From: Minisyncoccia bacterium
GTDB taxonomy: Bacteria; Patescibacteriota; Minisyncoccia; UBA6257; JAAZHW01
Reading direction: 5' to 3'
NCBI GenBank assembly: GCA_041550235.1
Contig: JBFEPE010000003.1
Coordinates: 1,199 to 65,198 of the forward strand
Length of the DNA stretch: 64,000 nucleotides
Notes under the pieces: model-generated
The model's database searches: none
Seen by the model: only the letters and a program-made list of their open reading frames with translations
Told to the model about the DNA's origin: nothing
Translations under genes and position numbers: made by a program
Shown here: piece by piece, positions 3,114 through 54,869 of the stretch
Numbering within the stretch: the first letter of the stretch is position 1
How the letters are laid out: each line of letters begins with the position of its first letter

Positions 3114-5472
3114 TATGATGAGGAGAGATGAGATAAAATCAATAAAAAAATATTTTAGATTGGCGAATTATATTACTGTCGCCCAAATTTACTTACAAAA
3201 TAATTTCTTATTAGAAAAACCACTCTCGCCTGACGACATAAAACCACGATTATTAGGACATTGGGGGACATGCCCGGGCATAAACTTTACTTATGCCCAC
3301 CTAAATTTTTTAATAAAAAAAACAGGAGCAAATATATTATTTATATTAGGACCCGGTCATGGATTCCCCGCCCTTCAAGCAAACCTTTACTTAGAGGGAA
3401 CATTAAGAAAATTTTATCCCCAAGCAAAATTTGATGAGAGCGGACTATCATATATATCAAAAAACTTCAGTTGGCCTTATGGATTCCCAAGCCATACAAA
3501 TCCCGGAACACCCGGCTCAATACTTGAAGGCGGAGAATTAGGATATTCATTATCAACTGCATTCGGAGCAGTATTAGATAATCCAAATTTAATAGCTGCT
3601 TGTTTGATTGGAGATGGAGAGGCCGAAACAGGACCATTGGCAGCAAGTTGGCATTTAAATAAATTCTTAAGCCCATCTATCGATGGAGCAGTTTTGCCAA
3701 TTCTTCATTTGAATGAATATAAAATATCAGGACCAACAATATATGGAAGAATGAGCAGAAGAGAATTAAAAAATTATTTTTGCGGATGTGGGTGGCAACC
3801 AATATTTGTGAAGGGAAATTCATTGTTTGGAGATATAAAAATGAATATTGCTCTACAAAAATGTTATTCAATAATAAGGGATATTCAAGGAGGGAAAGAT
3901 AAAAAATGGCCGATGATTATTTTGGAAACACCTAAGGGATGGACGGGGATAAAGGAATTTAATGGCAAAAAAATTGAAGGAAATTATTTATCTCATCAAG
4001 TGCCTTTAAAAAATGTTAAAGATGATAAAGAAGAAAGAAGGGCATTGGAGGATTGGCTCCTTTCTTATGGAGCAAAATCTCTTTTCTCAAATGATAAGGG
4101 TCCAATAAGAGATGTTTTGTCTATTTTGCCAGAAGAAAATAAAAGAATGGGTAGGAATATCCACACAATGGCTGAAAAAGTTTCAAAAAATTTAGAATTG
4201 CCAGATTGGACTAAGTTCGCAGAGCCACCAAAGAATATGGGAGAAATTGGCTCAAGTAATATGAGAAGAATTGGAGATTATTTAGCAGAGGTTTTCTCAT
4301 TAAATAAGGGGGAAGCAAATTTTCGGCTATTTTCACCAGATGAAACATATTCTAATAAATTAGATGCAGTTTTCAAAAAGACAAAAAGAATATTTTTGTG
4401 GCCATTGAAAAAAACGGATGAAGATTTTTCTTCAAGAAGGGGAGGGGTGATAGAAATACTCAGCGAGCATTCTTTACAGGGAATTTTACAAGGATATGTC
4501 CTCACGGGAAGGCATGGAGTATTTGCTAGTTATGAGGCATTTATTGAAATTGTATCATCAATGGCAGACCAACTTGCTAAATTCTTGAAAGCAAGCAGGG
4601 AATTTCCATGGCGAAAGGGTGTGCCGTCTTTCAATTATATCCTCACATCATCAGGGTGGCGACAAGACCATAATGGATTTTCTCATCAAAACCCAAGCTT
4701 CATTGACGGACTGCTTCAATCAGGAAATGATTTTGTTTCTGCTTATTTTCCTGTTGATGGGACAATGTCGCTGGCAGTGATAGATTATTGTTTAAGAACA
4801 AGGGATAAAATAAATATTATTTCTGCTGGAAAAACATTGGAGCCAAAATGGTTGGGGATAAATCAGGCAAAAGATATGATGGAAAAGGGGATAGATATTT
4901 GGAATGATATAAGCGATAAGAATCCTGATATTGTTTTTGTTGGCATCGGCGATTATATGACGAAAGAATGTATTTATGCGATTGATCTTATCAAAAAAGA
5001 AATTCCAAAAGTTAAGGTGAGGTTTGTAAATATTTTAGAAATAAATTCTTTTGGTTTTGGAAATTATAATTGGAGAAAAAATAATCCTGATAAAGATTTT
5101 AATTTTTATTTTACTTCTAATAAGCCAGTTATATTTAATTTTCATGGATATCCTGAAACAATAAAGGATATATTATTTGATAAATCTAAAAATCCATCAA
5201 GGTTTAAGGTTTTCGGATATATTGAGAATGGCTCCACCACCACTCCTTTTGATATGCAAATAAGGAATAAGACGAGTAGATGGCATTTGCTAATGGAGGC
5301 GGTTTTGTCTCTTGAGGAAAAGAAGAAAATAAGCTCGGCTACTGCCAAAAAAATAATTGATAAGCATAACGAGAAAATATCAAAACATAATTCTTATATT
5401 AAGAAACACGGAGTAGATCTCCCCGAAATTCAGGATTTTGGTAAGAGTGGCATCAGCGAAGAAATATTATAA
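3097..5472 (+). CDS. xfp: Xylulose-5-phosphate/fructose-6-phosphate phosphoketolase
   Basis: 'GHWGTCPGINF', 'ILGPGHG', 'EGGELGYSLSTAFGAVLDNP', 'CLIGDGEAETGPLAASWH' are hallmark phosphoketolase/TPP motifs; the true start may be a few codons downstream (MMRRDE...). Confidence 0.9.
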   Translation: MGYNIYMMRRDEIKSIKKYFRLANYITVAQIYLQNNFLLEKPLSPDDIKPRLLGHWGTCPGINFTYAHLNFLIKKTGANILFILGPGHGFPALQANLYLEGTLRKFYPQAKFDESGLSYISKNFSWPYGFPSHTNPGTPGSILEGGELGYSLSTAFGAVLDNPNLIAACLIGDGEAETGPLAASWHLNKFLSPSIDGAVLPILHLNEYKISGPTIYGRMSRRELKNYFCGCGWQPIFVKGNSLFGDIKMNIALQKCYSIIRDIQGGKDKKWPMIILETPKGWTGIKEFNGKKIEGNYLSHQVPLKNVKDDKEERRALEDWLLSYGAKSLFSNDKGPIRDVLSILPEENKRMGRNIHTMAEKVSKNLELPDWTKFAEPPKNMGEIGSSNMRRIGDYLAEVFSLNKGEANFRLFSPDETYSNKLDAVFKKTKRIFLWPLKKTDEDFSSRRGGVIEILSEHSLQGILQGYVLTGRHGVFASYEAFIEIVSSMADQLAKFLKASREFPWRKGVPSFNYILTSSGWRQDHNGFSHQNPSFIDGLLQSGNDFVSAYFPVDGTMSLAVIDYCLRTRDKINIISAGKTLEPKWLGINQAKDMMEKGIDIWNDISDKNPDIVFVGIGDYMTKECIYAIDLIKKEIPKVKVRFVNILEINSFGFGNYNWRKNNPDKDFNFYFTSNKPVIFNFHGYPETIKDILFDKSKNPSRFKVFGYIENGSTTTPFDMQIRNKTSRWHLLMEAVLSLEEKKKISSATAKKIIDKHNEKISKHNSYIKKHGVDLPEIQDFGKSGISEEIL

Positions 5473-5530
5473 TTTGTGGATAATTGCTATTGATTTTTAA
5501 TTTTATTCCTGGTAAGATAAAAACACTATG

Positions 5531-8433: not shown

Positions 8434-8467
8434 TCTTGATTTATTAATTATTTTATCTCCTTCTTGT

Positions 8468-8528
8468 CATTCCTGTCCGCCAAAGGCGGATAATACTCCA
8501 TCAGCCTGCCCGCCTTCGGCGGGGAATC
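8468..8528 (-). repeat. Inverted copy of a ~61-bp composite two-hairpin repeat (direct copies at 33637-33697 and 47198-47258)
   Basis: The reverse complement reads 'gattccccgccgaaggcgggcaggctgatggagtattatccgcctttggcggacaggaatga', about 90% identical to the other two copies. Confidence 0.75.
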
Positions 8529-8747
8529 TCTACCTTGCTATTATCACTCATTCGCCATCCTTTAGACCCCCGCCTTCGCGGGGGTGACAGAGAGAGGATG
8601 CCTCTCTTATTCCCCGCCCCCGCATAGATTTAAATTTGACATATTCTATAATCTTTGATATTATTAGATTAGAGAATAGATAATATATTTTGTCTATTCT
8701 TGAAAATTTAAGATGATAGAAAATTTAAAAAATAGGAGGAAATTAAA

Positions 8748-20142: not shown

Positions 20143-20265
20143 ATTCTCTTCTCCCGCCTACGGCGGGAGAAGAGAATGTGTGGTTTTTAAATATAAGTGA
20201 TTATTCTTAATGCCTCCTACCGCCAAAGGTGGCACATCCGCCTATGGCGGAGCGGGGGAGAGGCA
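20143..20265. repeat. Cluster of GC-rich hairpins upstream of rpmF (20143-20177 'attctcttctcccgcctacggcgggagaagagaat'; 20211-20265 nested hairpin)
   Basis: Inverted repeats; the 'ggtggcacatccgcctatggcggag' box recurs at 46870-46896. Confidence 0.75.
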
Positions 20266-22048: not shown

Positions 22049-22085
22049 TTTTTTATAGAGGGTATAATATAATAAAGTATTATGA

Positions 22086-22230
22086 ATCACCCCCCCCCGC
22101 CTACGGCGGGGGGGGGTGATAGAGTGGTTGGTGTTGTAATAATTTTTGAATGATGGATAAATTGCTAATCACCCCCCGCCTACGGCGGGGGGGGTGATAG
22201 AGTGGTTGGTGTTGTAATAATTTTTGAATA
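22086..22230. repeat. Tandem ~65-bp direct repeat (two copies), each containing a 14-bp-stem GC hairpin plus 'gatagagtggttggtgttgtaataatttttgaat'
   Basis: Copy 1 at about 22086-22151 and copy 2 at about 22169-22230, 17 bp apart, directly upstream of the pilin-like gene. Confidence 0.8.
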
Positions 22231-22237
22231 ACAAAAA

Positions 22238-23845
22238 TTGCTTTATAGAATAATTATGTTTAGTTTGAATAAAAAATATATAAAAGGGGTAACACTATTA
22301 GAAACACTGATATATGTTGCTATTTTTGCTGTTGTCGCTGGTGGATTGATAGGAATCTTGTCAGGCACAATAGATGTTGTAAGCAAAGAAGATGCCATAA
22401 ACGAAGTTGATGAGAACTTAAGGCAGGCGATTTCCACAATAGGCAATAGAATAAGAAATACCGATATAATTCAAAGTGCAACAGGCACAACATTAGTTTT
22501 AAGAATGGCGACAACAAGTCCTGGTGGGTTTTCTACTACAACATTTTCTGTTTCCAACGAGATGTTATATTTAACAGAGGGGGATAATGATCCAGTCGCA
22601 GTTATTTCTGATAAGGTAAAAGTTGATAGTTTGGAATTTACAAAAATTTCAATGCCGGGGGCAAAGGGCGGAGTAAGAATAAATATGGTGCTGAGTTATA
22701 ATAGCGATAAGGCATCGCTTTCATTTAGTAAATCTATTCTTTCTACTATCAATAGAGCGGTTGCAATTACATTCAATGAGGATGTTCTGCCGGGAGTAGA
22801 TAACTCATACAATATTGGCTCGTCCGGTAATTTCAGATGGAGGGATGGATATTTTTCTGGTGGATTGAGTGTTGATGGTGGGGTAACATCATCCCAATTT
22901 TGTTTATCTGATGGTTGTCAGACATCATGGGCTGGATTAGGATTATGGACAGCAAATGGCGATGATATTTATTATAATACTGGCAATGTAGGCATTGGAA
23001 CAACAACTCCTGATTTTTTACTTCACTTAGAAAAGGCGACATCCAATCCTGCCATTGTATGGGAAAGAGGAGATGGGGCGACTGGATTTGTAAATTCTAC
23101 TGCCAGTAATGTGGGCCTTGGTTCTGTTTCCAATCACGAGATTAGATTTTTAGTTGGGGCAAGTCCAAAAATGGTTATTGATACGGATGGTAATCTCGGA
23201 ATTGGAACGACTACTCCCGCATCTTTATTGAATTTATATGGTTCAGGGGGTGGTGGTAGCGGAATTATTTTTGGAAATAGTTATGATGATTTTTCTGGAT
23301 ATTTTGTTAATAATGATGACGATAGTGATTTTAGATTAACTTATTTGGGGTCAGGAGGATCGGACATAACTATTCAGGCAGATGGGGATGTTATTTTGGG
23401 GGCGGGTGGCAATGTTGGTATTGGTGATACTACTCCCAGTGAAAAGTTGGATGTGGCAGGGAATATTGGTTTAACCGGAACGGTTATCCCTGATAATGCT
23501 TGTGGTATTACTGGGGGAGTTTTCATTTATGATGCGGGTGGTGTATCCAGTGGTTTAAATTTATCTTCTGTTTATGGATATTCAATGATTTGTCCAGGGA
23601 TTGTTACCGGCATTTCGGCTAGATGTCAAACAGTAGATGCCTCTAACCATGTTGCTTTTGAAGTAAAGAAAAATAATTCTTCTCAAGATTGTGATACATT
23701 AGAAGTAGATACGGCCTATATTAGCGAAATAACATCTGGATGCAGTGTGAGTTTTTCAGCCGGAGATGCTATTAATTGTGCCGCTAAAACTGTAACAGGC
23801 ACAGTATCAACATGTAATTGTTCAATTTCAGTAAGATTTGATTAG
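22238..23845 (+). CDS. Large type IV pilin-like protein with tail-fibre-like Gly-rich repeats
   Basis: N-terminal prepilin signal 'KG|VTLLETLIYVAIFAVVAGGL' with Glu at +5; three repeats of 'GN(V/L)GIG(T/D)TTP...L'; Gly/Ser/Thr-rich C-terminus. Confidence 0.6.
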   Translation: MLYRIIMFSLNKKYIKGVTLLETLIYVAIFAVVAGGLIGILSGTIDVVSKEDAINEVDENLRQAISTIGNRIRNTDIIQSATGTTLVLRMATTSPGGFSTTTFSVSNEMLYLTEGDNDPVAVISDKVKVDSLEFTKISMPGAKGGVRINMVLSYNSDKASLSFSKSILSTINRAVAITFNEDVLPGVDNSYNIGSSGNFRWRDGYFSGGLSVDGGVTSSQFCLSDGCQTSWAGLGLWTANGDDIYYNTGNVGIGTTTPDFLLHLEKATSNPAIVWERGDGATGFVNSTASNVGLGSVSNHEIRFLVGASPKMVIDTDGNLGIGTTTPASLLNLYGSGGGGSGIIFGNSYDDFSGYFVNNDDDSDFRLTYLGSGGSDITIQADGDVILGAGGNVGIGDTTPSEKLDVAGNIGLTGTVIPDNACGITGGVFIYDAGGVSSGLNLSSVYGYSMICPGIVTGISARCQTVDASNHVAFEVKKNNSSQDCDTLEVDTAYISEITSGCSVSFSAGDAINCAAKTVTGTVSTCNCSISVRFD

Positions 23846-32938: not shown

Positions 32939-33372
32939 TCAACAATAATAAGCCGGATTCTGTATCAACAATCATTTATCTATGAATAGTGTCGCCACTA
33001 TTCTATAGCGATCCACCTTTTCGCTTATAAAAAGCGATTTGATCTTGCACCGGATAGGGCTTGCCAGCAATGGCTTATCACTAAGCCCGCATAAGAGTAG
33101 CAATTATGAAAATCACATCTCTTATCTTTTCACCTTTCTCCAGCCCCACTTTTATTTCTAAAAGTGGGGCTGGGTAGTATTGTCTCTGTGGCGCTTTCCC
33201 TATCCAGCACCACTTTTATTTCTAAAAGTGGTGCTGGGCGGTTGGTGTTACCAACTATCCATTTTCCAATATTTATATTTAATAATAAAATAATAAATAT
33301 TTTGGGTGTCCGGACTTTCCTCTTCTTATGTTGCCGAAGCAATATAAGAAGCGATTGCTTTTGCCGAATTGC
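32936..33372 (-). ncRNA. rnpB: RNase P RNA (bacterial type)
   Basis: Minus-strand sense carries the P4 motif 'GAGGAAAGUCCGGACACC' (plus strand 33303-33320), the 3' P4 motif 'ACAGAAUCCGGCUUA' (plus strand 32948-32962), a P3 hairpin, P1/P2 pairing, and two duplicated hairpins with a compensatory C-G to A-U change. Confidence 0.75.
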
Positions 33373-33469
33373 CCATATCTTAACATAATTTAATAATAAG
33401 TCAATTTTTGATTTTTGAAAGTAAAATCAAAAATTTACTATATTTCGCCTATGATTTTAAAAGACAAGA

Positions 33470-33498
33470 ATATCCCCCCGCCTTCGGCGGGGGGATAT
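33470..33498. repeat. GC palindrome 'atatccccccgccttcggcggggggatat'
   Basis: Near-identical to the hairpin at 3050-3078 apart from the loop. Confidence 0.8.
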
Positions 33499-33636
33499 TG
33501 AATAAATTTATCACTTTTATTCTCTCTCTTGTTACCTCCGCCTGTGGCAGACATTCTGCCCGCGAAGTATTTTATATCCGCCTCTGGCGGAGCGGAGGTC
33601 TAAAAGTCACGGCAAACATGATGAATTATGTTTGAG

Positions 33637-33697
33637 ATTCCCCGCCTAAGGCGGGCAGGCTGCCGGAGTATTATCCGCCTCTGGCGGACAGGAATGA
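33637..33697 (+). repeat. ~61-bp composite two-hairpin repeat, direct copy
   Basis: 'gattccccgcctaaggcgggcaggctgccggagtattatccgcctctggcggacaggaatga'. Confidence 0.8.
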
Positions 33698-33699
33698 CA

Positions 33700-33960
33700 A
33701 AAAAGAGGGTGGAATAGCATGTTCTTATCTTTCCACACTTTTGAAATGATGATGATTTACCTCCCCCGCCCCGAAGGGGCGGGGGAGGATATTCTTATCT
33801 TTCCACAATTTTGGACAATACTATCAATCCTCCTCCGCCTGTGGCGGAGGAGGATCTTTCCACACTTTTAGATAATAATACAACTATGCCTCGCCCTGCG
33901 AAGCAGGGCAAGGCATATCATCAAATTATCATCTTTCCACACCTTTAAATAAAATAAATA
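33700..33960. repeat. Tandem array of four modules, each a distinct GC hairpin followed by a conserved 'tctttccacac(t)ttt' box
   Basis: Boxes at 33731, 33800, 33858 and 33934; hairpins at 33760-33788, 33829-33853 and 33887-33915; the same box also occurs at 16886 and 17051. Confidence 0.7.
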
Positions 33961-33978
33961 ACAATTATAATATAGATA

Positions 33979-34809
33979 ATGATAAACATTTTCAAAAATA
34001 AGAAAGCCACTTCATTTATAATTCTCTCAATTGCATTGATAATAGCAATTATTTTGATATCTAATGGTGGGGAAGAGGTGGTGATTGGAATAAATAGCGA
34101 TATAAAAAACGACCAAGAAAATAAAGCAAGCGGTTTCCAATTAGAAAGAGATGGAGAAAAATTAGGAATAATTGGAGTGAACGATTTGTCTCAATACTTA
34201 ACTACTCAATCAAAAAAAAGAAACCTCACAAGAGACTTGGCCGATAAATTATCGCTTGGTTTTGTTGAGGCAAATGAATTTAATGAAGACCCATCGCAAG
34301 GTGTTTTCACTCCTGACGGTTATAGCATAATATCCACCTCATTAGAAGACTACAGCAATGAGTTTGGTTTGAAAAAAGACTTCATTACAATAAAAGATTT
34401 AAATATTGGGGGGGATAATTCTCAAGAAGCAATTCTTTCATATTATACTCAATATAGAGATACCATAAGTGAAGAAGTTGATAAGTTGGATATTTTAAAT
34501 AGATTAAATAAATTCAATGAGAGCAAGAATTTAAGTTATATTTTTGATATAATAGATGGGTATGATTCATTAATTTCAAAAATGAAAAAAATAAAAGTTC
34601 CAAGTGATTTTATAGAACTTCATTTGGAAAATATAAATTTATATATTTCTCAAAAATCTATTTTTGGCTCATTGGCTCAAATCAATGATGACCCATTAAG
34701 GTCTCTCACTGCAATAAATTTATTAGAAGAAACAGAAGATAAGTTGAGTGATTTGGGATTGGAATTTGCTTCTGCTCTTGAAAAAAATGGATTTAAAATT
34801 ATTTATTAA
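33979..34809 (+). CDS. Hypothetical membrane-anchored protein (276 aa); first gene of the T4SS-like cluster
   Basis: N-terminal TM helix; no motif. Confidence 0.45.
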   Translation: MINIFKNKKATSFIILSIALIIAIILISNGGEEVVIGINSDIKNDQENKASGFQLERDGEKLGIIGVNDLSQYLTTQSKKRNLTRDLADKLSLGFVEANEFNEDPSQGVFTPDGYSIISTSLEDYSNEFGLKKDFITIKDLNIGGDNSQEAILSYYTQYRDTISEEVDKLDILNRLNKFNESKNLSYIFDIIDGYDSLISKMKKIKVPSDFIELHLENINLYISQKSIFGSLAQINDDPLRSLTAINLLEETEDKLSDLGLEFASALEKNGFKIIY

Positions 34810-36395: not shown

Positions 36396-36472
36396 ATACC
36401 CGCCTTCGTTAAAACTTCGGCGGGCGAAACCCGCCTTCACTCTAAAGAGTTTCGGCGAGGCGAAGTAAAAAA
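36396..36472 (+). promoter_or_regulatory. GC-rich structured leader upstream of the VirB6-like gene ('cccgccttcgttaaaacttcggcgggcgaaa...tttcggcgaggcgaag')
   Basis: Shares the 'cgccttcgNNNaaacttcggcg(g/a)gcgaag' box with the leaders at 43458-43500, 46792-46822 and 47449-47485. Confidence 0.5.
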
Positions 36473-39049: not shown

Positions 39050-39121
39050 TGAAATAAAAAAACAGAGTGTTTTGAAATTTCAAAACACTCTGTTTGATTA
39101 TAATAAAATTTATAATTTTTC

Positions 39122-40081
39122 TTACTTTTTTTTGAGATCGATCATTCCAGACAAATCAGCAACATATTGAAGTGGGTTTTGTGTAATCAGCGTATTGCCA
39201 TTCTCTGCGAAAGTATTGAGAATTCCTTGATTATCTTGATACCTGACGATTCCAAGGGCTTCTTTAAATGTGATTTTGAACTCTTCCATGAGGGATTTTA
39301 TCGTCTTTTCAACCGCCTTAATTTCTTCCTCTTCTCCTATTCTTTTTGCTTCGGCTTTCTCTTTAGCGACTTCTTTTTCTTTTTTTGCTTTTTCTATAGC
39401 AGTATAAGAAGCAAGAAGTGTTGGGTCTTCTGGTTCAATATTTAGTATTTTACAAACCACATCCTGTCCAAATTTTTCATCAAGGTGATTTTCAATCATC
39501 CTTGATAACTCCATCGTATCTTTAGATTTCAAATTAATCCATGTCCCATTTTCTCTAGCGAGACTTCTTATTCCCCCTTCTATTGTAAATAATAGTGTGG
39601 CATCTGGGTTATCTGTTTTGTAGGTAAAATTTCGCACATTTGATATTAGATTTTCCTTGTTTGTGCCATGAATTTGAGTCTCAATTAGCATATCAAATTT
39701 TAATGGGACATTATCTTCGCAAATTATGTCATTATAGGTCTTTGGAAAAACTTTTTTCATGAGATTGATTTCATATTTACCTAATTTCTTCACTTTTTTC
39801 TCAAGGGGGAACCATATAAAATGGGGTCCTTTTGTCAGAATCCTGGAATCTCTACCTAGAAATTGAGTAGCGACTGCTGTTTTCTCCTCAACTATCAGAA
39901 AGGCTTTTTTCAAGTAGAAGAAGGTGATTATAAGGGTTATAACTATTGAAGCAGGGAGAACAACCGATGGAAGTGGGATGAGGGACATTATCAGAAAAAG
40001 AATCAACCAAAAAACAAAAACTGCCGCAAAACCAATCAATAAATTTTTTGCTTTTCCAAATAAAGCTTTTAGAATATCCAT
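39122..40081 (-). CDS. SPFH/band-7 (stomatin/prohibitin-like) membrane protein
   Basis: N-terminal TMs, 'TKGPHFIWFP', and a C-terminal 'AKEKAEAKRIGEEEE' coiled-coil typical of HflK/C-like proteins. Confidence 0.65.
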   Translation of the reverse strand: MDILKALFGKAKNLLIGFAAVFVFWLILFLIMSLIPLPSVVLPASIVITLIITFFYLKKAFLIVEEKTAVATQFLGRDSRILTKGPHFIWFPLEKKVKKLGKYEINLMKKVFPKTYNDIICEDNVPLKFDMLIETQIHGTNKENLISNVRNFTYKTDNPDATLLFTIEGGIRSLARENGTWINLKSKDTMELSRMIENHLDEKFGQDVVCKILNIEPEDPTLLASYTAIEKAKKEKEVAKEKAEAKRIGEEEEIKAVEKTIKSLMEEFKITFKEALGIVRYQDNQGILNTFAENGNTLITQNPLQYVADLSGMIDLKKK

Positions 40082-40236
40082 TTTAATTTCTCCTTTTTTA
40101 ATCTATATTTATTTTTTAATTCTCACCGTAATTGGCTGGGTGTATTATATCACAAATAAAGAATTTGTCAATATTGATTATATTTTATAAGTTATAATGT
40201 TTGTATTGATATATTTTTCAAGAGTGAGAAGGAGAG

Positions 40237-40267
40237 ACTACCCCGCCCCTTCGGGGCGGGGTAGTCA
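40237..40267. repeat. GC palindrome 'gactaccccgccccttcggggcggggtagtc'
   Basis: Perfect inverted repeat. Confidence 0.8.
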
Positions 40268-40309
40268 AGAATTTTAAATAAAAAATGTGAGGTATAATAT
40301 AATAAATAT

Positions 40310-40579
40310 ATGACTTTATTTCAAAAATACATTCAAGCAGCCCTTCATAAGGCAAAATATAAAATAGATAAAGAAAAAAATGTCTACATTGCCTTTGTTG
40401 AGGAATTGCCAATTTGTTGGGGACAAGGAGCGACTTATGAGGATGCGAGACAAGAATTAGCCAATGTTATTGAAGGTTGGGTTCTTTTGGGTATTCAACA
40501 AGGCGACACTATCCCCCCAATCGGCGGAATTAATTTAGAGAGTATTCTTCATCCCAAGAATCAAGTTCAATATGCCTAA
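40310..40579 (+). CDS. HicB-like antitoxin (second pair)
   Basis: 'VYIAFVEELPICWGQGATYEDARQELANVIEGWV...GDTIPP' matches the HicB fold pattern. Confidence 0.6.
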   Translation: MTLFQKYIQAALHKAKYKIDKEKNVYIAFVEELPICWGQGATYEDARQELANVIEGWVLLGIQQGDTIPPIGGINLESILHPKNQVQYA

Positions 40580-40796
40580 ACTAACCCCTCTATCAAGAAA
40601 GGAATTTATTAAGAAACTTAAGGGCTTTGGGTTGCAAGGTCCTTTTCAAGGGGGAGATCATCAATTTATGTGTAATAAAAATTGTAGAATAAAAGTTCCC
40701 AATTCTCACAGCAAAAAAGATATTCCTATTTTTATTATTCAATTAACTATAAGGCAATTAGGCAAATCAAAAGATGAGTGGATAAATAAAAAATAG
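40572..40796 (+). CDS. HicA-like toxin (second pair)
   Basis: 8-nt overlap with the upstream ORF; 'KLKGFGLQGPFQGGDHQFM...KVPNSHSKKDIP' resembles YcfA/HicA. Confidence 0.55.
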   Translation: MPKLTPLSRKEFIKKLKGFGLQGPFQGGDHQFMCNKNCRIKVPNSHSKKDIPIFIIQLTIRQLGKSKDEWINKK

Positions 40797-40821
40797 GGTA
40801 TAATGTTTATATAGCAAAAAT

Positions 40822-42936: not shown

Positions 42937-42940
42937 TAAA

Positions 42941-42976
42941 AAGGGGCAGGGTGTTTTTTCACCCGCCCTTTTCGGC
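42941..42976. terminator. Bidirectional terminator (gggcagggtg...cacccgccc flanked by A- and T-runs)
   Basis: 'aaaaggggcagggtgttttttcacccgcccttttcgg'. Confidence 0.6.
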
Positions 42977-42981
42977 AATAA

Positions 42982-43302
42982 CTAAAATTTTACCACGGCC
43001 GCAAGTACTGATTTCCCGTTATTAAAATCTTCGGGAGTTCCCCAATTGAGCCAGTTTCGAAAATTAATTTCTACAAGCCCTTTAGTAGGGGTAGGAATAC
43101 TATAATCCGTTTTTGGTTTGCAATTCAAGGTGCTACCGTTATTACTCTTGAGCAGAATGTTTTTTACAAATATCCCATCTCGGAATGACACTTCTTTAAT
43201 AGTCCAACCAAGATGAATAACCTCGTCTGAGTCCACAAATTCAATAGTCATTTCCTTGTTTATTCTAGCATTTGAATAAAGATCTCTTTTTTTTCTAGTC
43301 AT
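42982..43302 (-). CDS. Hypothetical protein (106 aa) inserted between the two VirB4 parts
   Basis: Strong RBS 'aataggaggaataaata' before the ATG; divergent from the promoter module. Confidence 0.45.
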   Translation of the reverse strand: MTRKKRDLYSNARINKEMTIEFVDSDEVIHLGWTIKEVSFRDGIFVKNILLKSNNGSTLNCKPKTDYSIPTPTKGLVEINFRNWLNWGTPEDFNNGKSVLAAVVKF

Positions 43303-43388
43303 TATTTATTCCTCCTATTTTTTTAATTTTTAACATCTTAACGGAAACTCAACCATCAAATTTCCCGCCAACATTATATCACAAATAA

Positions 43389-43445
43389 ATATATTTGTCA
43401 ATAGTGGGGGTTGGGTTTGACTTATAATAGTATTAATGAACATCC
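43389..43445 (+). promoter_or_regulatory. Conserved promoter-like element, copy 1 ('tgtcaatagtgggggttgggtttgacttataatag')
   Basis: Near-identical to 46727-46793; contains TATAAT at 43423-43428. Confidence 0.55.
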
Positions 43446-43579
43446 TGTCTTCGTCGACCCGCCTTCGCTAAAGCTACGGCAGGGCAGGGGACTTCGGCGG
43501 GCAAAGGAGAAACACCCCGTCCCGCCAAGAGACGAGCCACCCCTCTATAAGAGGGGAATAAGAAATAAGATAAAAAAAT
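43446..43579 (+). promoter_or_regulatory. Structured GC-rich 5' leader of virB4 with the motif 'ggagaaacaccccgtccc-hairpin-ccacccctctataagagggg'
   Basis: The motif recurs at 46826-46880 and 47383-47448. Confidence 0.5.
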
Positions 43580-45394
43580 ATGGCGATAGCAGATTTCTTA
43601 CCATTTTCAAAAAAAGGAGAAGACCAGCCGGTGGCTATTCCCGAAGTATATAAATTTGGACCGCAAACAGCGAGGGATCTTTTGATTCCCCCAGCATTAG
43701 AAGTAGAATCAAATTTTTTAAAAATTGGAAATCTTTTTGTGAAAACATTATTTATCATTGCTTATCCAAGATATCTTTCTACGGGATGGTTTTCGCCGGT
43801 TATAAATATAGACCAAACCGTTGATGTATCAATATTTGTTCATCCAGTTGATACCGGCTCTGCATTGAAAAAATTAAGAAAAAAGACCGCTCAAGTTCAA
43901 GCACAATTAGCAGAAAGACAAGAGAAGGGATTTGTGAGAGACCCCGCATTGGATATGGCATATCAAAACCTGGAAAATCTAAGAGACTCATTGCAACAAG
44001 CAACAGAAAAACTTTTCAATGTCGGTGTATACATTACAATTTATGCTGATACAATGGAAGAATTAAGCGATGTGGAAGGCAAGGTTGTCTCATTTTTGGA
44101 GGGCAGAATGATTTATGCAAAGCCCGCTCTTTTTCAACAAGCACCGGGATTAGAATCAAGTTTTCCATTGGGGTTAGATAGATTGAAAGTTCATAGTGTT
44201 TTAAATTCATCACCATTATCAAGTATGTTTCCGTTTGTTTCCGTTGATTTAACATCAGATTCTGGAATACTTTTTGGGTTAAATAGACATAATAATAGTT
44301 TAATAATTTTTGATAGATTTTCTTTGGAAAATGGAAATATGGTTATATTTGCAAAGTCAGGTAGCGGAAAATCATATTTCACAAAATTAGAAATTTTAAG
44401 GTCATTAATGATAGATACAGATGTTTTGGTTATTGACCCTGAAAATGAATATAGATATCTTTGTGATACCGTTGGCGGTTCATATATTGATATCTCCCTC
44501 ACTTCTCCTCACAATATCAATCCATTTGATTTGCCCCCTCTTATGCCCGACGAAAGTCCAGCCGAAGCATTGAAGTCTAATGTTTTAAACCTCACAAGTT
44601 TGTTGAGAATAATGCTCGGTGATTTATCATCTGAAGAAGCAGGAATATTGGATAGGGCAATCAGCGAAACTTATTCATCAAGAGACATTACCCCTGAAAG
44701 TGATTTTTCTATTATCACTCCGCCCTTAATGGAAGACTTACAAACCGTTTTGGAAAGTATGGAAGGGGGGCTTAATCTTTCTGAGAGATTATATAAATTC
44801 ACAAAAGGAAGTTTTGGTGGATTTATAAATCGCCCTACTAATATTGATATTGTAAATCGATTAGTTGTTTTTGGAATAAGAAACTTAGAAGATGAACTTC
44901 GTCCAATAGCAATGTTTATTATTCTTAATTATATTTGGAACCTTATTCGTTCTAATGTGAAGAAAAGAATATTGATAATTGATGAGGCATGGTGGATGAT
45001 GAAGTTTCCTGCGGGAGCAGATTTCTTATTTGGATTAGTGAAAAGATGCCGTAAATATTTTTTGGGAGTTACTACCATCACTCAAGATGTTGATGATTTT
45101 ATTCGCTCGCCACAAGGAATGCCTATTATCACGAACTCGGCACTTCAAATGTTGATGAAGCAATCTACTGCTTCTATTGATAATGTTGCTGAAACATTCA
45201 GTTTAACTAATTCTGAAAAGCAATTATTGGTTGAGGCGGATATTGGAGAGGGGATATTTTTTGCTGGTCTCAAGCATGCTGCTATTAAGGTCATTGCTTC
45301 TTATGCTGAGGATCAAATAATCACAACAAACCCCGCTCAATTATTAGAGATAGCAGAAGCAAAGAGAGAATTTGGCGAATCCCAAGGATTTTAA
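43580..45394 (+). CDS. virB4: VirB4/TrbE/CagE-family T4SS ATPase (middle and ATPase domains)
   Basis: Walker A 'AKSGSGKSYF', Walker B 'RILIIDEAWWMM', N-terminal 'YPRYLSTGWFSPV' region typical of VirB4. Confidence 0.8.
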   Translation: MAIADFLPFSKKGEDQPVAIPEVYKFGPQTARDLLIPPALEVESNFLKIGNLFVKTLFIIAYPRYLSTGWFSPVINIDQTVDVSIFVHPVDTGSALKKLRKKTAQVQAQLAERQEKGFVRDPALDMAYQNLENLRDSLQQATEKLFNVGVYITIYADTMEELSDVEGKVVSFLEGRMIYAKPALFQQAPGLESSFPLGLDRLKVHSVLNSSPLSSMFPFVSVDLTSDSGILFGLNRHNNSLIIFDRFSLENGNMVIFAKSGSGKSYFTKLEILRSLMIDTDVLVIDPENEYRYLCDTVGGSYIDISLTSPHNINPFDLPPLMPDESPAEALKSNVLNLTSLLRIMLGDLSSEEAGILDRAISETYSSRDITPESDFSIITPPLMEDLQTVLESMEGGLNLSERLYKFTKGSFGGFINRPTNIDIVNRLVVFGIRNLEDELRPIAMFIILNYIWNLIRSNVKKRILIIDEAWWMMKFPAGADFLFGLVKRCRKYFLGVTTITQDVDDFIRSPQGMPIITNSALQMLMKQSTASIDNVAETFSLTNSEKQLLVEADIGEGIFFAGLKHAAIKVIASYAEDQIITTNPAQLLEIAEAKREFGESQGF

Positions 45395-45474
45395 ATTTTT
45401 TGTTTTTGATTTTTTTTGAAATAAAAAAACAGCATTTGAGGATTTCTCCCCAAATGCTTTCTAATTTTTATACT

Positions 45475-46647
45475 TCATCCCATTCTGTTTTCTTCAATAA
45501 ACTGCTTTATTTTTTCGGAATGCGAGCATCTTAAATAATGTCTTATTCTTCTTGCGATTCTAGTTATTCCAATATCCTTATCTTCATCCTCATCTCCCCC
45601 TCCAGTCATCTCTTTTCCTTTCACTTCTCTTATCATTCCATCAAGATAAGAATTAGATGCCTCTTTTGATTGAATTTGCTCAAGTCGTTCAATCGTGATT
45701 TCATTTTCATCTATAAATCTTTCCATCAAATCTCGGAATGCCCACTGCTCTTTCAAGTCATTACTTGGCTCAAAGCCAAACCAAGAAATAAGATTTTCTT
45801 CCTCTGTAGAAACTCGTCCTTGATTGATCAATCCCTGCAGGTTTTCTCTTGTGAAGCCAAATTCCCCAACTTTTAACAAAAATTCAGGCGAATTTTCAAA
45901 AGGGAAGACCTTTAAAATGCTATCCCAAAATCTGTCTAGGTAGCAATCGCTAAAAGAATTTTCCCCAACAAGATATTTAAGGTTTTTTTCAAGCACTTCT
46001 GCCATTTCAAATAGAGAAAGATAAATTTTCTTTATTCCCTCAAAAATTGTTTGGCTATTTGATTTTTTCCATAATTTCCACAAGCCATCAATATAATGAC
46101 TCATTGAATGTGCCCAGTAAAAATATCTTTTTTCTTCCAATGCAAAAGCACTTAAAGCTATTTCTATTCCGCGAGAAACACATTCAACATCACCGTTTTT
46201 AAGGGCTGCCTCTAGTGAATTCATTTGCAAATAATTTTTTTTCGATGCCTCCTTCGCCCCATAGATATACCCACCAAGTTTTGCAAATCCTTTTCTTAGA
46301 TTTTGTTCTTTAAGAATAGTCAAAAACTTTTCAATATCTTTACTCGCCTGATAGTGAAAGCGGACTCTTGTTTCGGGAAAAAGATTGGGATCGCCAGAGT
46401 TATCAATCCAAACATAGTCATCAAAATTAAATCCTTTTTTTCTAAGACTCGCAATGACTTCGCTTCCGCAGACCATCCCCAAAAAAAATCCAATCAGAAT
46501 AATCTCAATGTTGTTTTCTTTTAAGAAATCAACAACCTCATCATCTGTCTTCGGGGTTAATGCAAATGTTTGGTGTCCAAGATTTTTGGCAACCTCTCTT
46601 TGTTTTTCGGTTTCATTCAGAAACCAATCAATCCATACGATATTCAT
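45475..46647 (-). CDS. Hypothetical protein (390 aa)
   Basis: RBS 'aataggaggaataaa' before the ATG; divergent from promoter module copy 2. Confidence 0.5.
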   Translation of the reverse strand: MNIVWIDWFLNETEKQREVAKNLGHQTFALTPKTDDEVVDFLKENNIEIILIGFFLGMVCGSEVIASLRKKGFNFDDYVWIDNSGDPNLFPETRVRFHYQASKDIEKFLTILKEQNLRKGFAKLGGYIYGAKEASKKNYLQMNSLEAALKNGDVECVSRGIEIALSAFALEEKRYFYWAHSMSHYIDGLWKLWKKSNSQTIFEGIKKIYLSLFEMAEVLEKNLKYLVGENSFSDCYLDRFWDSILKVFPFENSPEFLLKVGEFGFTRENLQGLINQGRVSTEEENLISWFGFEPSNDLKEQWAFRDLMERFIDENEITIERLEQIQSKEASNSYLDGMIREVKGKEMTGGGDEDEDKDIGITRIARRIRHYLRCSHSEKIKQFIEENRMG

Positions 46648-46726
46648 TTTATTCCTCCTATTCGTTTTATTTTATTATTTTATTTTTAAACATCAGGAAA
46701 TCTGACTTTCCTGATAGTATGATGTA

Positions 46727-46793
46727 ATATATTTATAAAAATGTCAATAGTAGGGGTTGGGTTTGATTTATAATGGTAAGGATGAACACCCCG
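46727..46793 (+). promoter_or_regulatory. Conserved promoter-like element, copy 2 ('tgtcaatagtaggggttgggtttgatttataatgg')
   Basis: TATAAT at 46769-46774. Confidence 0.55.
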
Positions 46794-47490
46794 CCTTCGT
46801 CGAGACTTCGGCGGGCGAAGGAGAAAACACCCCGTCCCGCCTGAGGCGGACCACCCTTCTATTAGAGGGTGGCACATCCGCCTTTGGCGGAGAATTATAA
46901 GACAAGATTAACAACTCCCAAAGAAAATCAAAATTTCGAATATATAGAGAGTAAATAGAAACAAATTAAGGAATGGGGAGCGATGATCTATATATTCAAA
47001 TGTTTGAGTTTTGCCGATTTTCAAATAGAGGCAAAACGAGTTCTTTCCAGCCAGAGGCGGATCCGCCTATGGCGGAGAATTGATCATCGCGGAGACAAGA
47101 AATAAATTGCAAAGCAATTTCTTTCTTGGCGGGAATGGATATAATTTGTCTATTTACGAACGAAATAGAGAAATTTTAGATTTTTTGGGGAGATAGAGAT
47201 TCCCCGCCGAAGGCGGGCAGGCCGCCGGAGTATTATCCGCCTCTGGCGGACGGGAATGAAAAGAAAGGACGGGCATGACAAGAAAAAAGTGGGGATAATC
47301 TAAATTGTAGCAATAATATAATGGTGGTATAATATAATCAAAGAAAATATCTCCCCGCTTTCGCGGGGATGACGACAAAGAAGGGGAGAAACACCCCGTC
47401 CCAGCCCCTGCGGACAGGGGCTGGACCACCCCTCTATAAGAGGGGAATTATACTCGCCTTCGTTGAAACTTCGGCGAGGCGAAGAAAAAT
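46794..47490 (+). other. ~700-nt non-coding GC-hairpin-dense region; candidate long structured leader or ncRNA
   Basis: No credible ORF; ORF-track hits here are Pro/Arg-rich translations of hairpins; contains the leader motif twice, the 61-bp repeat and the 'aaaatcaaaatttcgaatat' box. Confidence 0.45.
47198..47258 (+). repeat. ~61-bp composite two-hairpin repeat, direct copy
   Basis: 'gattccccgccgaaggcgggcaggccgccggagtattatccgcctctggcggacgggaatga'. Confidence 0.8.
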
Positions 47491-47952
47491 ATGGCGGAGG
47501 AGACAAAAACAAAAATTGAAAAACCATTACAAGTTCCACAGAGAAAACCTCAAATACCAACAGGCGGAGCGAGAACCATTAGACCAAAACTATCAAGATT
47601 CTTGCCGGTTGGAAGAAAAAGAGAGGGAGCATCTCAAAAAGAATCAGGAACAATAGGGAAAATAACAAAAAAGGGGACATTAATAATGGGAACTTTGATT
47701 TTTTTGCCAATTATTCTTTTGGCTGATGTAGTTGATATCTTTACATTAGCAGGTCCAGTATTAATAGTTTCATGGATATTAGATATATTATCCTTTGTTT
47801 TCCCAGCCGTATTTCTTTTGATTGCCAACAAAGGACAGGGGATTATGAGATACGGGATGGCATGCTTTGCCGAAGGAATACCAGTCGTAGAATGGGGGAC
47901 ATGGAGAATAATAGTTCTATTGATGATAATTTTTAGCTCAAAAAGCACCTAA
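47491..47952 (+). CDS. Hypothetical small membrane protein (2-3 TM helices)
   Basis: Hydrophobic C-terminal half; preceded by the leader box 'ctcgccttcgttgaaacttcggcgaggcgaag'; start uncertain. Confidence 0.4.
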   Translation: MAEETKTKIEKPLQVPQRKPQIPTGGARTIRPKLSRFLPVGRKREGASQKESGTIGKITKKGTLIMGTLIFLPIILLADVVDIFTLAGPVLIVSWILDILSFVFPAVFLLIANKGQGIMRYGMACFAEGIPVVEWGTWRIIVLLMIIFSSKST

Positions 47953-54657: not shown

Positions 54658-54685
54658 AAAAAGAGCATTAAAATCAAAACCAAAA

Positions 54686-54869
54686 AAAATCAAAATTTCG
54701 AATATCTAGAGAGTAAATAGAAACAGAGATATAATAATATCCCTCCCCCGCCTACGGCGGGGGAGGGATTATCCCGGCTTATAAACAAAGTAAAGAAATT
54801 TTAGATTTTTTTTGAAGCCATGTTATAAAAAGACATAAATTAGCCTCCCCCCGCCTACGGCGGGGGGAG
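54686..54869. repeat. Mosaic repeat region: 'aaaatcaaaatttcgaatatctagagagtaaatagaaaca' box (also at 46921-46962; partial at 2509-2535) plus two GC hairpins (54739-54769, 54845-54869)
   Basis: Shared ~40-nt box, and the 'ataataatatccc+hairpin' junction is shared with 2530-2570. Confidence 0.7.

Follow-up and report, generated by a model that had tools for sequence, protein, structure and literature searches.

Why does one type IV secretion system (T4SS) operon carry two closely similar control regions, each back to back with a gene on the opposite strand, and what might they do there? The operon lies in a 64,000-nucleotide stretch of the genome of a Minisyncoccia bacterium (the window; G+C content, 33%), and the two regions, at positions 43396 to 43556 (copy A) and 46742 to 46870 (copy B), are duplicates of one control region of ∼130 to 165 bases each. 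The explanation that we favor, with a probability of roughly 0.65, is that two lineage-specific insertions entered the operon and that the copies are paralogous, with a divergent-promoter region at the right-hand junction of each insertion. Transcription of the T4SS genes would restart there on the plus strand, into a leader composed of repeats that resemble repetitive extragenic palindromic (REP) sequences and bacterial interspersed mosaic elements (BIMEs).

The duplicated control region

An earlier note on this DNA had described two copies of a bidirectional module. The duplication is real, and the ribosome-binding site (RBS), box, and leader follow one another in the order that was described. 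The box, TGTCAATAGTRGGGGTTGGGTTTGAYTTATAAT, measures 33 nt as written rather than the 38 nt given in the note, and it occurs at exactly two sites in the 64 kb searched, positions 43396 to 43428 and 46742 to 46774 of the plus strand, which are identical at 31 of 33 positions. Allowing 3 mismatches yielded no third site in the window, and box-like matches at that level appeared in 0 of 100 shuffles. In copy A the box comprises a TGTCAA at 43396 to 43401, a G-rich element (AGTGGGGGTTGGGTTTGA) at 43403 to 43420, and a TATAAT at 43423 to 43428; in copy B the G-rich element lies at 46749 to 46766 and the TATAAT at 46769 to 46774. The G-rich element is conserved at 17 of 18 positions between the copies. 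It has at most loose look-alikes elsewhere in the window, its sequence AGTRGGGGTTGGGTTTGA was absent from the 26 fetched loci searched (fetched loci carry L numbers below), and neither the full plus-strand element nor the box was found in IMG/VR.

The pairwise alignment proposed as a check on the duplication joined leader positions 43429 to 43556 to 46775 to 46870 with a single 32-nt indel; the similarity is GC-rich and is thus not confined to AT-rich or TATAAT sequence. Box and leader together are ∼90% identical between the copies, and the adjoining spacer is far less conserved. The AT-rich spacers between RBS and box, put at ∼70 nt by the note, are indeed present at 76 and 79 nt, but they are barely alike, with 4 of 500 shuffles scoring equally high. 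Beyond them, the 15-nt RBS string AATAGGAGGAATAAA stands in exact form at both minus-strand gene starts and nowhere else, even when one substitution is allowed: 43305 to 43319 for a 106-amino-acid (aa) gene and 46648 to 46662 for a 390-aa gene. The higher conservation of box and leader points to purifying selection on them or else to their having been copied more recently than the spacer.

Downstream of the copies are the genes that had been named, a VirB4 ATPase gene after copy A and, after copy B, ∼615 nt of noncoding DNA followed by a 153-aa membrane-protein gene. This is no whole-segment duplication, since the genes beside A are unrelated to those beside B; a search of 5.8 billion proteins with the 390-aa protein returned only the protein itself and no close relative, and weak partial matches were obtained among 1.84 billion representatives.

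Insertions into the T4SS operon

The VirB4-type ATPase has hundreds of homologues of ∼600 aa, annotated from Paceibacterota and Patescibacteria metagenome bins. Five close homologues (79 to 83% identical) led to six loci for comparison (L020 to L025). The gene order 524-858-349-PrgI-TraC_N-VirB4-153-238-215-394 (numerals are protein lengths) is collinear in the longest relatives, L021 and L022, and the shorter loci carry the sub-stretches that they cover; the gaps flanking the VirB4 gene are 1 to 72 nt in all six. Three blocks of the window, 39050 to 40821, 42937 to 43579, and 45395 to 47490, have no counterpart in these relatives. Each opens with a bidirectional terminator (A-run, hairpin, T-run), continues with one or more minus-strand genes, and closes in a region of divergent promoters. 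For two of the three blocks, copies A and B form the right-hand junction. Because the T4SS genes are contiguous in the six relatives, the copies mark the points where lineage-specific insertions of antisense genes join the operon, and parsimony suggests that the three blocks are gains in the lineage of the window. The 319-aa, HicBA, 106-aa, and 390-aa genes that they hold had no counterpart in tblastn searches of L020 to L022 or in the gene tables of L020 to L025.

The insertion that ends in copy A begins with the intrinsic terminator AAAA-GGGGCAGGGTG-TTTTTT-CACCCGCCC-TTTT (42943 to 42972), which separates the TraC-like N-domain gene from the inserted 106-aa orphan gene (42982 to 43302, minus strand). 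Past its right-hand junction lies the VirB4-type gene (43580 to 45394, plus strand; 604 aa; P-loop_TraG, E = 8e-32), of a length normal in its clade. The insertion that ends in copy B begins with a terminator hairpin at the boundary between the VirB4 and 390-aa genes (45431 to 45458) and consists of the 390-aa orphan gene (45475 to 46647, minus strand), unrelated to the 106-aa gene, and ∼840 nt of noncoding DNA. It is followed by the 153-aa gene (47491 to 47952, plus strand), whose product has hydrophobic segments and which is the ortholog of the gene directly after VirB4 in the relatives.

The third block, insertion 1 (39050 to 40821), shares the architecture of the other two. Its bidirectional terminator, at ∼39057 to 39095, is followed by a gene for a 319-aa SPFH/Band-7-like protein (39122 to 40081, minus strand), a consensus promoter on the minus strand (40171 to 40143) nearly identical to that of copy A, a plus-strand TATAAT (40193 to 40198) with a GC hairpin behind it, and a hicB/hicA toxin-antitoxin pair (40310 to 40796; UPF0150, E = 1.5e-19; HicA, E = 5e-6). 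Domain-library scans detected no recombinase or transposase domain in the 106-, 319-, and 390-aa proteins. Pfam, NCBIfam, PADLOC, and PHROGs gave no clue to the identity of the inserted orphan genes; the 106-aa protein had no match in them at the curated cutoff or at an E value of <0.05. No similarity of the window to known phages or plasmids was found.

Two other interpretations of this region were discarded. The VirB4 gene is not split by an insertion, as the 219-aa TraC-like N-domain protein and the ∼600-aa VirB4 are separate in all close relatives; a few VirB4 homologues reach ∼790 aa, and ∼600 aa is the norm. The similarity of 42943 to 42968 to 46813 to 46838, which might be taken for an inverted copy of the leader repeat described below, is that of an ordinary bidirectional terminator and gave no covariance-model match on the minus strand. 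The VirB4 start codon has no clear Shine-Dalgarno sequence, either in the window or in the relatives.

Probable back-to-back promoters

The hexamer TGTCAA, which the note included in its box, reads TTGACA on the minus strand; it is the −35 element of a minus-strand sigma-70 promoter and not part of a plus-strand element. In copy A this promoter is a perfect one (12 of 12 consensus positions), TTGACA-17 nt-TATAAT with an upstream TG (TGTGATATAAT) at 43373 to 43401, and it points at the 106-aa gene, which upholds the description of the region as bidirectional. Copy B carries a weaker version at 46719 to 46747 of the minus strand, TTGACA-17 nt-CATCAT, with 10 of 12 consensus positions and a poor −10 element.

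The promoter string TTGACAAAT-N3-TTTATTTGTGATATAAT occurs twice in the window, both times on the minus strand: at 43373 to 43401 and at 40143 to 40171, upstream of the 319-aa gene of insertion 1. It recurs with TATGAT as the −10 element at L007 1754 to 1782, ahead of a small antisense open reading frame (ORF), and in five IMG/VR contigs (L027 to L031) whose flanks are unrelated, and it contains the inverted repeat ACAAAT-N5/6-ATTTGT. It is probably the optimal promoter of the lineage, of the TRTG extended −10 kind. We therefore rejected the similarity between 40144 to 40173 and 43373 to 43403 (TTTGTCAATA...) as a mobile module: it is a strong, lineage-typical consensus promoter, present in the unrelated IMG/VR contigs.

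On the plus strand, a perfect TATAAT stands in both copies (43423 to 43428 and 46769 to 46774), and the arrangement TTGTCA-22 nt-TATAAT is found at the identical offset in A, B, and insertion 1. The box is probably a back-to-back promoter pair. Nearer to the 153-aa gene, an extended −10 element, TGGTATAAT at 47315 to 47323, with a second TATAAT overlapping it (47315 to 47328, plus strand), was read from the sequence; it had been missed by the promoter scan, which depends on a −35 element. The 153-aa gene may consequently have two promoters.

Hairpin modules of the leaders

The leaders fold better than shuffled sequences and consist of two hairpin modules, designated hp0 and core. Leader A (43436 to 43579, plus strand), the probable 5′ untranslated region (UTR) of the VirB4 gene, has ∼1.5 hp0 units at 43458 to 43509 and a core at 43501 to 43561 (72.9 bits). 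Leader B (46782 to 46875, plus strand) has one hp0 unit at 46790 to 46821 and a core at 46816 to 46875 (65.3 bits; fold z = −5.2). A third, partial leader copy, leader C (47349 to 47490, plus strand; 74.6 bits; z = −7.9), lies directly 5′ of the 153-aa gene, with a GC hairpin at 47352 to 47369, a core at 47380 to 47450, and an hp0 at 47453 to 47485 that stops 5 nt before the ATG.

The hp0 module, CCCGCCTTCG-N-CTTCGGCGGGCGAAGG, is a hairpin of 10 to 12 bp. The window has it five times, always on the plus strand (36399, 36430, 43458, 46790, and 47453), two of which end just before a start codon; outside it, hp0 occurs in L004 (twice), L010, and L018. Given ∼1.5 units in A and one in B, the 32-nt indel between the leaders is a difference in the copy number of this hairpin module. 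A similar composite in a related genome has two full hp0 units at the homologous position (L004 4494 to 4560), with a core following them as in the leaders. At the 858-aa and 153-aa genes, the distance from the end of an hp0 hairpin to the start codon is 5 to 10 nt (36396 to 36472 and 47450 to 47490), and GGCGAGGCGAAG-A/T-rich-ATG is read at both genes where a Shine-Dalgarno sequence would be expected.

The core has the layout AACACCCCGUCCC-hairpin-CCACCCCUC-loop-GAGGGGAAU, in fuller form (R)GAGAAA(A)ACACCCCGUCCC-[variable hairpin]-CCACCCCUC-[4-5 nt]-GAGGGGAAU. A covariance model built from 14 copies identified three strong copies in the window, each on the plus strand and lacking an inverted partner. 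The search pattern had fixed the flanks and the second hairpin, so that the variable hairpin alone provides independent evidence of pairing. There, 93.6% of the cells are paired, compared with 42 to 62% in slid controls, and two pairs show compensatory changes (GC/AU/CG and CG/GC; 11 cells, reached by 0 of 500 shuffles) among copies some of which share a genome. The single-stranded segment AACACCCC is conserved beside these covarying hairpins. Rfam gave nothing relevant at gathering thresholds, nor at E values of ≤10 in 43250 to 47600; the sole family at gathering score in the window is the bacterial class-A RNase P RNA.

Intergenic DNA throughout the window is rich in GC-rich palindromes. The leader modules are likewise short GC-rich palindromes, with several copies per genome, mainly extragenic, and combined into mosaics, and the leader thus reads as a REP/BIME-like mosaic of dispersed palindromic modules. 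MITEs (miniature inverted-repeat transposable elements) poorly describe the window copies, which are solo, lie on the plus strand, and have no recognizable target-site duplication.

The core in other genomes

An exact-pattern scan of 185,579 species genomes returned the core seven times on six small contigs of a Paceibacteria metagenome-assembled genome (MAG), JBFFCO01, and a single time in each of two other MAGs, one of Gracilibacteria and one of Bacillota; the rest were chance matches in high-GC coding DNA. A stricter core pattern was matched by three metagenome contigs and by no viral contig. With the covariance model, ∼30 significant copies were detected in the fetched loci, including at least 11 on the six small contigs of JBFFCO01. 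No core copy with an E value below 0.5 was present in the six syntenic T4SS loci, where the genes of the VirB4 operon lack a leader altogether.

The settings of these copies are diverse. Four of them, all in the sense orientation, occupy spacers of the S10 ribosomal-protein operon of JBFFCO01, including sites that directly follow the rplB and rpsC stop codons, and further copies adjoin pilO-neighbor and nucleoside triphosphate (NTP)-transferase genes. About 13 of the 14 intergenic copies are sense relative to the adjacent gene. In L017 (358 to 500), three tandem units run in frame without stops inside a 754-aa ORF, reading NNTPSANTDTPLKEG. In L018, core copies in both orientations and one hp0 lie in frame, again without stops, in a 993-aa methyltransferase-like ORF (modules at 3154 to 3205, 3274 to 3311, 5297 to 5354, and 5442 to 5501). 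Inverted core pairs exist in L011 and L018. A sequence that follows rplB and rpsC, stands between other genes, and lies inside ORFs is not a gene-specific leader; across genomes, the core had no conserved association with orthologous genes that would mark a gene-specific cis-regulatory element. Its distribution is that of a dispersed palindromic element. No account of palindromic repeats in Patescibacteria was found in the searchable literature.

The idea of a portable cassette, put forward in the note, therefore holds in part: the hairpin modules of the leader recur in the window and in other genomes, but the box was seen solely at its two sites in the window and in none of the 38 fetched loci searched or IMG/VR, and portability of the box is not borne out by these sequences.

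In the S10 operon of JBFFCO01 (L006 1 to 4120, minus strand), an 88-aa antisense ORF is inserted between rplB and rpsS, an operon interruption like those of the window. Contig L026 (1.9 kb; same organism, different sequencing run) matches window positions 46625 to 46854 with its positions 1 to 230 and terminates exactly within core copy B; core repeats disrupt short-read assemblies, as at the end of this contig.

DUF559 genes between inverted cores

Inverted core copies bracket DUF559 genes in all six distinct loci examined, four of which had been picked by protein similarity alone. The bracketed gene family is DUF559/MTES_1575 (PF04480, PF18741), a Vsr-like PD-(D/E)XK endonuclease and not a Y1 transposase. 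In L018, the DUF559 segment (3934 to 4260) lies between cores at 3860 to 3916 (minus strand) and 4261 to 4314 (plus strand), so that the whole unit spans 3860 to 4314. A free-standing DUF559 gene is bracketed likewise in the Gracilibacteria locus L005 (7354 to 7839). With the L005 protein as the query, a test independent of the motif yielded four homologues, from Paceibacterota, another Patescibacteria bin, an unclassified contig, and Bacteroidota (L032 1455 to 1898, L034 1441 to 1912, L035 1458 to 1916, and L036 1463 to 2052). An inverted core (ATTCCCCTC...GAGGGG...GGGGTGTGTT) precedes the ATG by 10 to 20 nt in all four loci. A forward core lies at or overlaps the 3′ end of the gene in the first three; in L036, the Bacteroidota locus, the forward copy is weak and lies ∼150 nt downstream. 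The window itself lacks a DUF559 gene; each of its three cores stands alone.

Repeats flanking DUF559 have no description in the searchable literature. DUF559 is listed among the genes enriched for inversions flanked by inverted repeats, that is, targets of "programmed inversion" (PMC9881135). We consider it conceivable, at rather less than even odds, that a DUF559 nuclease and not a tyrosine transposase spreads this multiphylum core family, in a partnership like that of REPINs and RAYTs (REP doublets forming hairpins and REP-associated tyrosine transposases), and that the repeats have been co-opted here as building blocks of 5′ UTRs. Such repeats would land in intergenic spacers, even within the S10 operon, and in frame inside genes; together with the duplicated box, they may enable a reduced genome of the candidate phyla radiation (CPR) to rewire an operon that insertions have broken. 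The link between DUF559 and the core is incidental to the finding in the window; if true, it would be an undescribed nuclease-repeat partnership across several phyla, able to insert in frame.

The arrangement around DUF559 genes, where the core acts as an inverted terminal repeat, also bears on whether each insertion in the operon is itself a transposable element, with box and leader as a terminal repeat carrying an outward promoter, as in some insertion sequences (ISs). Three insertions of the same architecture in one operon, and an RBS, box, and leader common to A and B, would fit such elements. However, their left ends (42937 to 42981, 45395 to 45474, and 39050 to 39121) hold ordinary terminators and no copy, direct or inverted, of core, hp0, or box; no transposase, integrase, or DUF559 gene is present in or near the insertions; and the cargo genes are unrelated orphans with no recognizable target-site duplication. 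We regard this explanation as unlikely.

The noncoding stretch after copy B

Between leader B and the proximal promoter of the 153-aa gene, positions 46876 to 47314 (plus strand) form a noncoding mosaic of dispersed modules that are repeated elsewhere in the window. Positions 46868 to 46892 resemble 20228 to 20252, and an AT-rich "tail" of ∼85 nt (AATTATAAGACAAGATTAACAACTCCCAAAGAAAATCAAAATTTCGAATATATAGAGAGTAAATAGAAACA...) at 46886 to 46970 resembles 54680 to 54725 and 2495 to 2533. This tail, commonly located after a core, often precedes a GC hairpin; in several copies it is conserved at ∼90% or more between two genomes. Positions 47194 to 47265 resemble 33634 to 33697, the reverse complement of 8461 to 8532, and, in another genome, L007 1165 to 1230; these are copies of a two-hairpin module, GAGATTCCCCGCC-NAAG-GCGGGCAGGCYGCCGGAGTATTATCCGCCTCTGGCGGACGGGAATGA. 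The whole of 46776 to 47493, which includes leaders B and C and the promoter at 47315 to 47328, folds far above shuffled sequences (z = −10). Two candidate identities were set aside: a decayed N terminus of the next gene, for which there was no tblastn signal, and a TIGR-Tas array, for which there was no regular short period.

Copy B might instead drive an independent noncoding RNA, running from ∼46776 to 47040 or further, and not the membrane-protein gene; its likeness to A would then come from a promoter and 5′ hairpins put to use again for a small RNA. The ∼615 nt after copy B are free of ORFs, leader C has a separate extended −10 element ahead of it, and core plus 85-nt tail recurs as a unit in JBFFCO01 (L001, L006, and L007). 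A core in L002 has a TTGTCA-type promoter-like sequence upstream and no sense gene downstream. Against these observations, no plus-strand intrinsic terminator was found between 46775 and 47490, and copies of the tail also occur without a promoter directly after genes, so that we judge an RNA of this kind improbable.

Discussion

Under the explanation favored here, that A and B are divergent-promoter regions restarting a broken operon, the terminators of the insertions would cut the ancestral operon transcript, the minus-strand sigma-70 promoter would serve the inserted antisense gene, and the plus-strand TATAAT, possibly aided by a factor bound to the G-rich element, would restart VirB4 (A) and the 153-238-215-394 genes (B). 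The GC hairpins at the 5′ ends of these transcripts may block exonucleolytic decay or act as processing sites or intercistronic stabilizers, or they may be tolerated selfish DNA. Recombination between resident hp0 and core repeats, for instance, could have carried the box and leader of one junction to the other. Firing of the plus-strand TATAAT and an action of the hairpins at the RNA level are what we infer from the sequence.

Several points weigh against this explanation. On the plus strand, neither A nor B has a −35 element at 16 to 18 nt or an extended −10 (TGn). An extended −10 element proximal to the 153-aa gene, at 47315, may make copy B dispensable there. Parsimony is what favors gain here over loss in all six relatives. 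The bias of the modules toward one orientation might stem from the direction of replication and not from a function in RNA, and the covariation counts are not independent events, as copies from the same genome are related. The box search covered 64 kb of the genome, which makes its two occurrences a lower bound.

That the leader is a dedicated cis-regulatory RNA (a riboswitch, attenuator, or protein-binding leader) coregulating the T4SS genes, with the box as its promoter or operator, is very improbable: three copies within 4 kb, all sense and all upstream of T4SS genes, the conserved AACACCCC beside covarying hairpins, stable folds, and the G-rich element at 17 of 18 positions speak for it, but the core also follows the rplB and rpsC stop codons, stands between unrelated genes, and lies as a tandem triple in the 754-aa ORF and in the methyltransferase-like ORF, the six syntenic T4SS operons have no core with an E value below 0.5, and no Rfam family matches.

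Both parts of the control region belong to known kinds: a putative back-to-back promoter pair and a UTR assembled from REP/BIME-like repeats. Protection of mRNA ends, the role that the hairpins may have here, is the classical function of REPs. Like REPs and BIMEs, the modules are short GC-rich palindromes in transcribed intergenic DNA, form mosaics, and often lie between cistrons or 3′ of genes; unlike them, the window copies are single rather than inverted doublets, have one orientation, and stand in 5′ UTRs directly after promoters, and some copies elsewhere are in frame. In REPs and REPINs, inverted repeat copies bracket a single nuclease gene, the RAYT gene (PMC3116915, PMC3337134). The inverted cores resemble this system in flanking a single nuclease gene and differ from it in that the gene encodes a DUF559/Vsr-like PD-(D/E)XK endonuclease, not an IS200/IS605-type tyrosine transposase.

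Among other small mosaics, the Correia repeat enclosed elements (CREEs) and neisserial intergenic mosaic elements (NIMEs) of Neisseria also serve as portable regulatory pieces between genes. Correia elements are cotranscribed intergenic repeats that can supply or modify promoters and mRNA-processing hairpins, and as complete MITEs they have inverted repeats at their termini and a duplicated TA. Neither feature is seen in the window copies, which have no sequence similarity to them, and the box lies outside the dispersed repeat. Rickettsia palindromic elements (RPEs), which are translated as parts of the genes they enter, share the in-frame insertion into genes seen for core and hp0 in L017 and L018, whereas all window copies are intergenic, the phylum is another one, and the sequences are unrelated; RPEs are not known to flank a nuclease gene. 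The IS-borne or hybrid outward promoters are alike in that a promoter at the edge of an insert reads into disconnected downstream genes. The blocks described here differ from them in showing no IS features and in having an ordinary antisense gene, its own terminator, and a back-to-back promoter pair.

The proposed restart would account for how a conserved ten-gene T4SS operon can stay expressed despite three antisense insertions, and it yields testable predictions of transcription starts. The discovery of RNA motifs calls for caution, as GC-rich "structured leaders" in AT-rich Patescibacteria can be palindrome mosaics and not riboregulators.

Other repeats in the window

Two further hairpin-bearing stretches were noted. 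Positions 33371 to 33978, a noncoding mosaic of ∼600 nt, separate the RNase P RNA gene from a gene at 33979 that stands two genes upstream of the 524-aa gene heading the collinear T4SS block; the mosaic contains at least seven GC hairpins, four of which are followed by the motif TCTT(ATC)TTTCCACAC. The gene at 22238 is directly preceded by a tandem pair of near-identical units (22073 to 22217), in each of which ATAGAGTGGTTGGTGTTGTAA comes after a long G/C hairpin (CACCCCCCCCCGCCTACGGCGGGGGGGGGTG).

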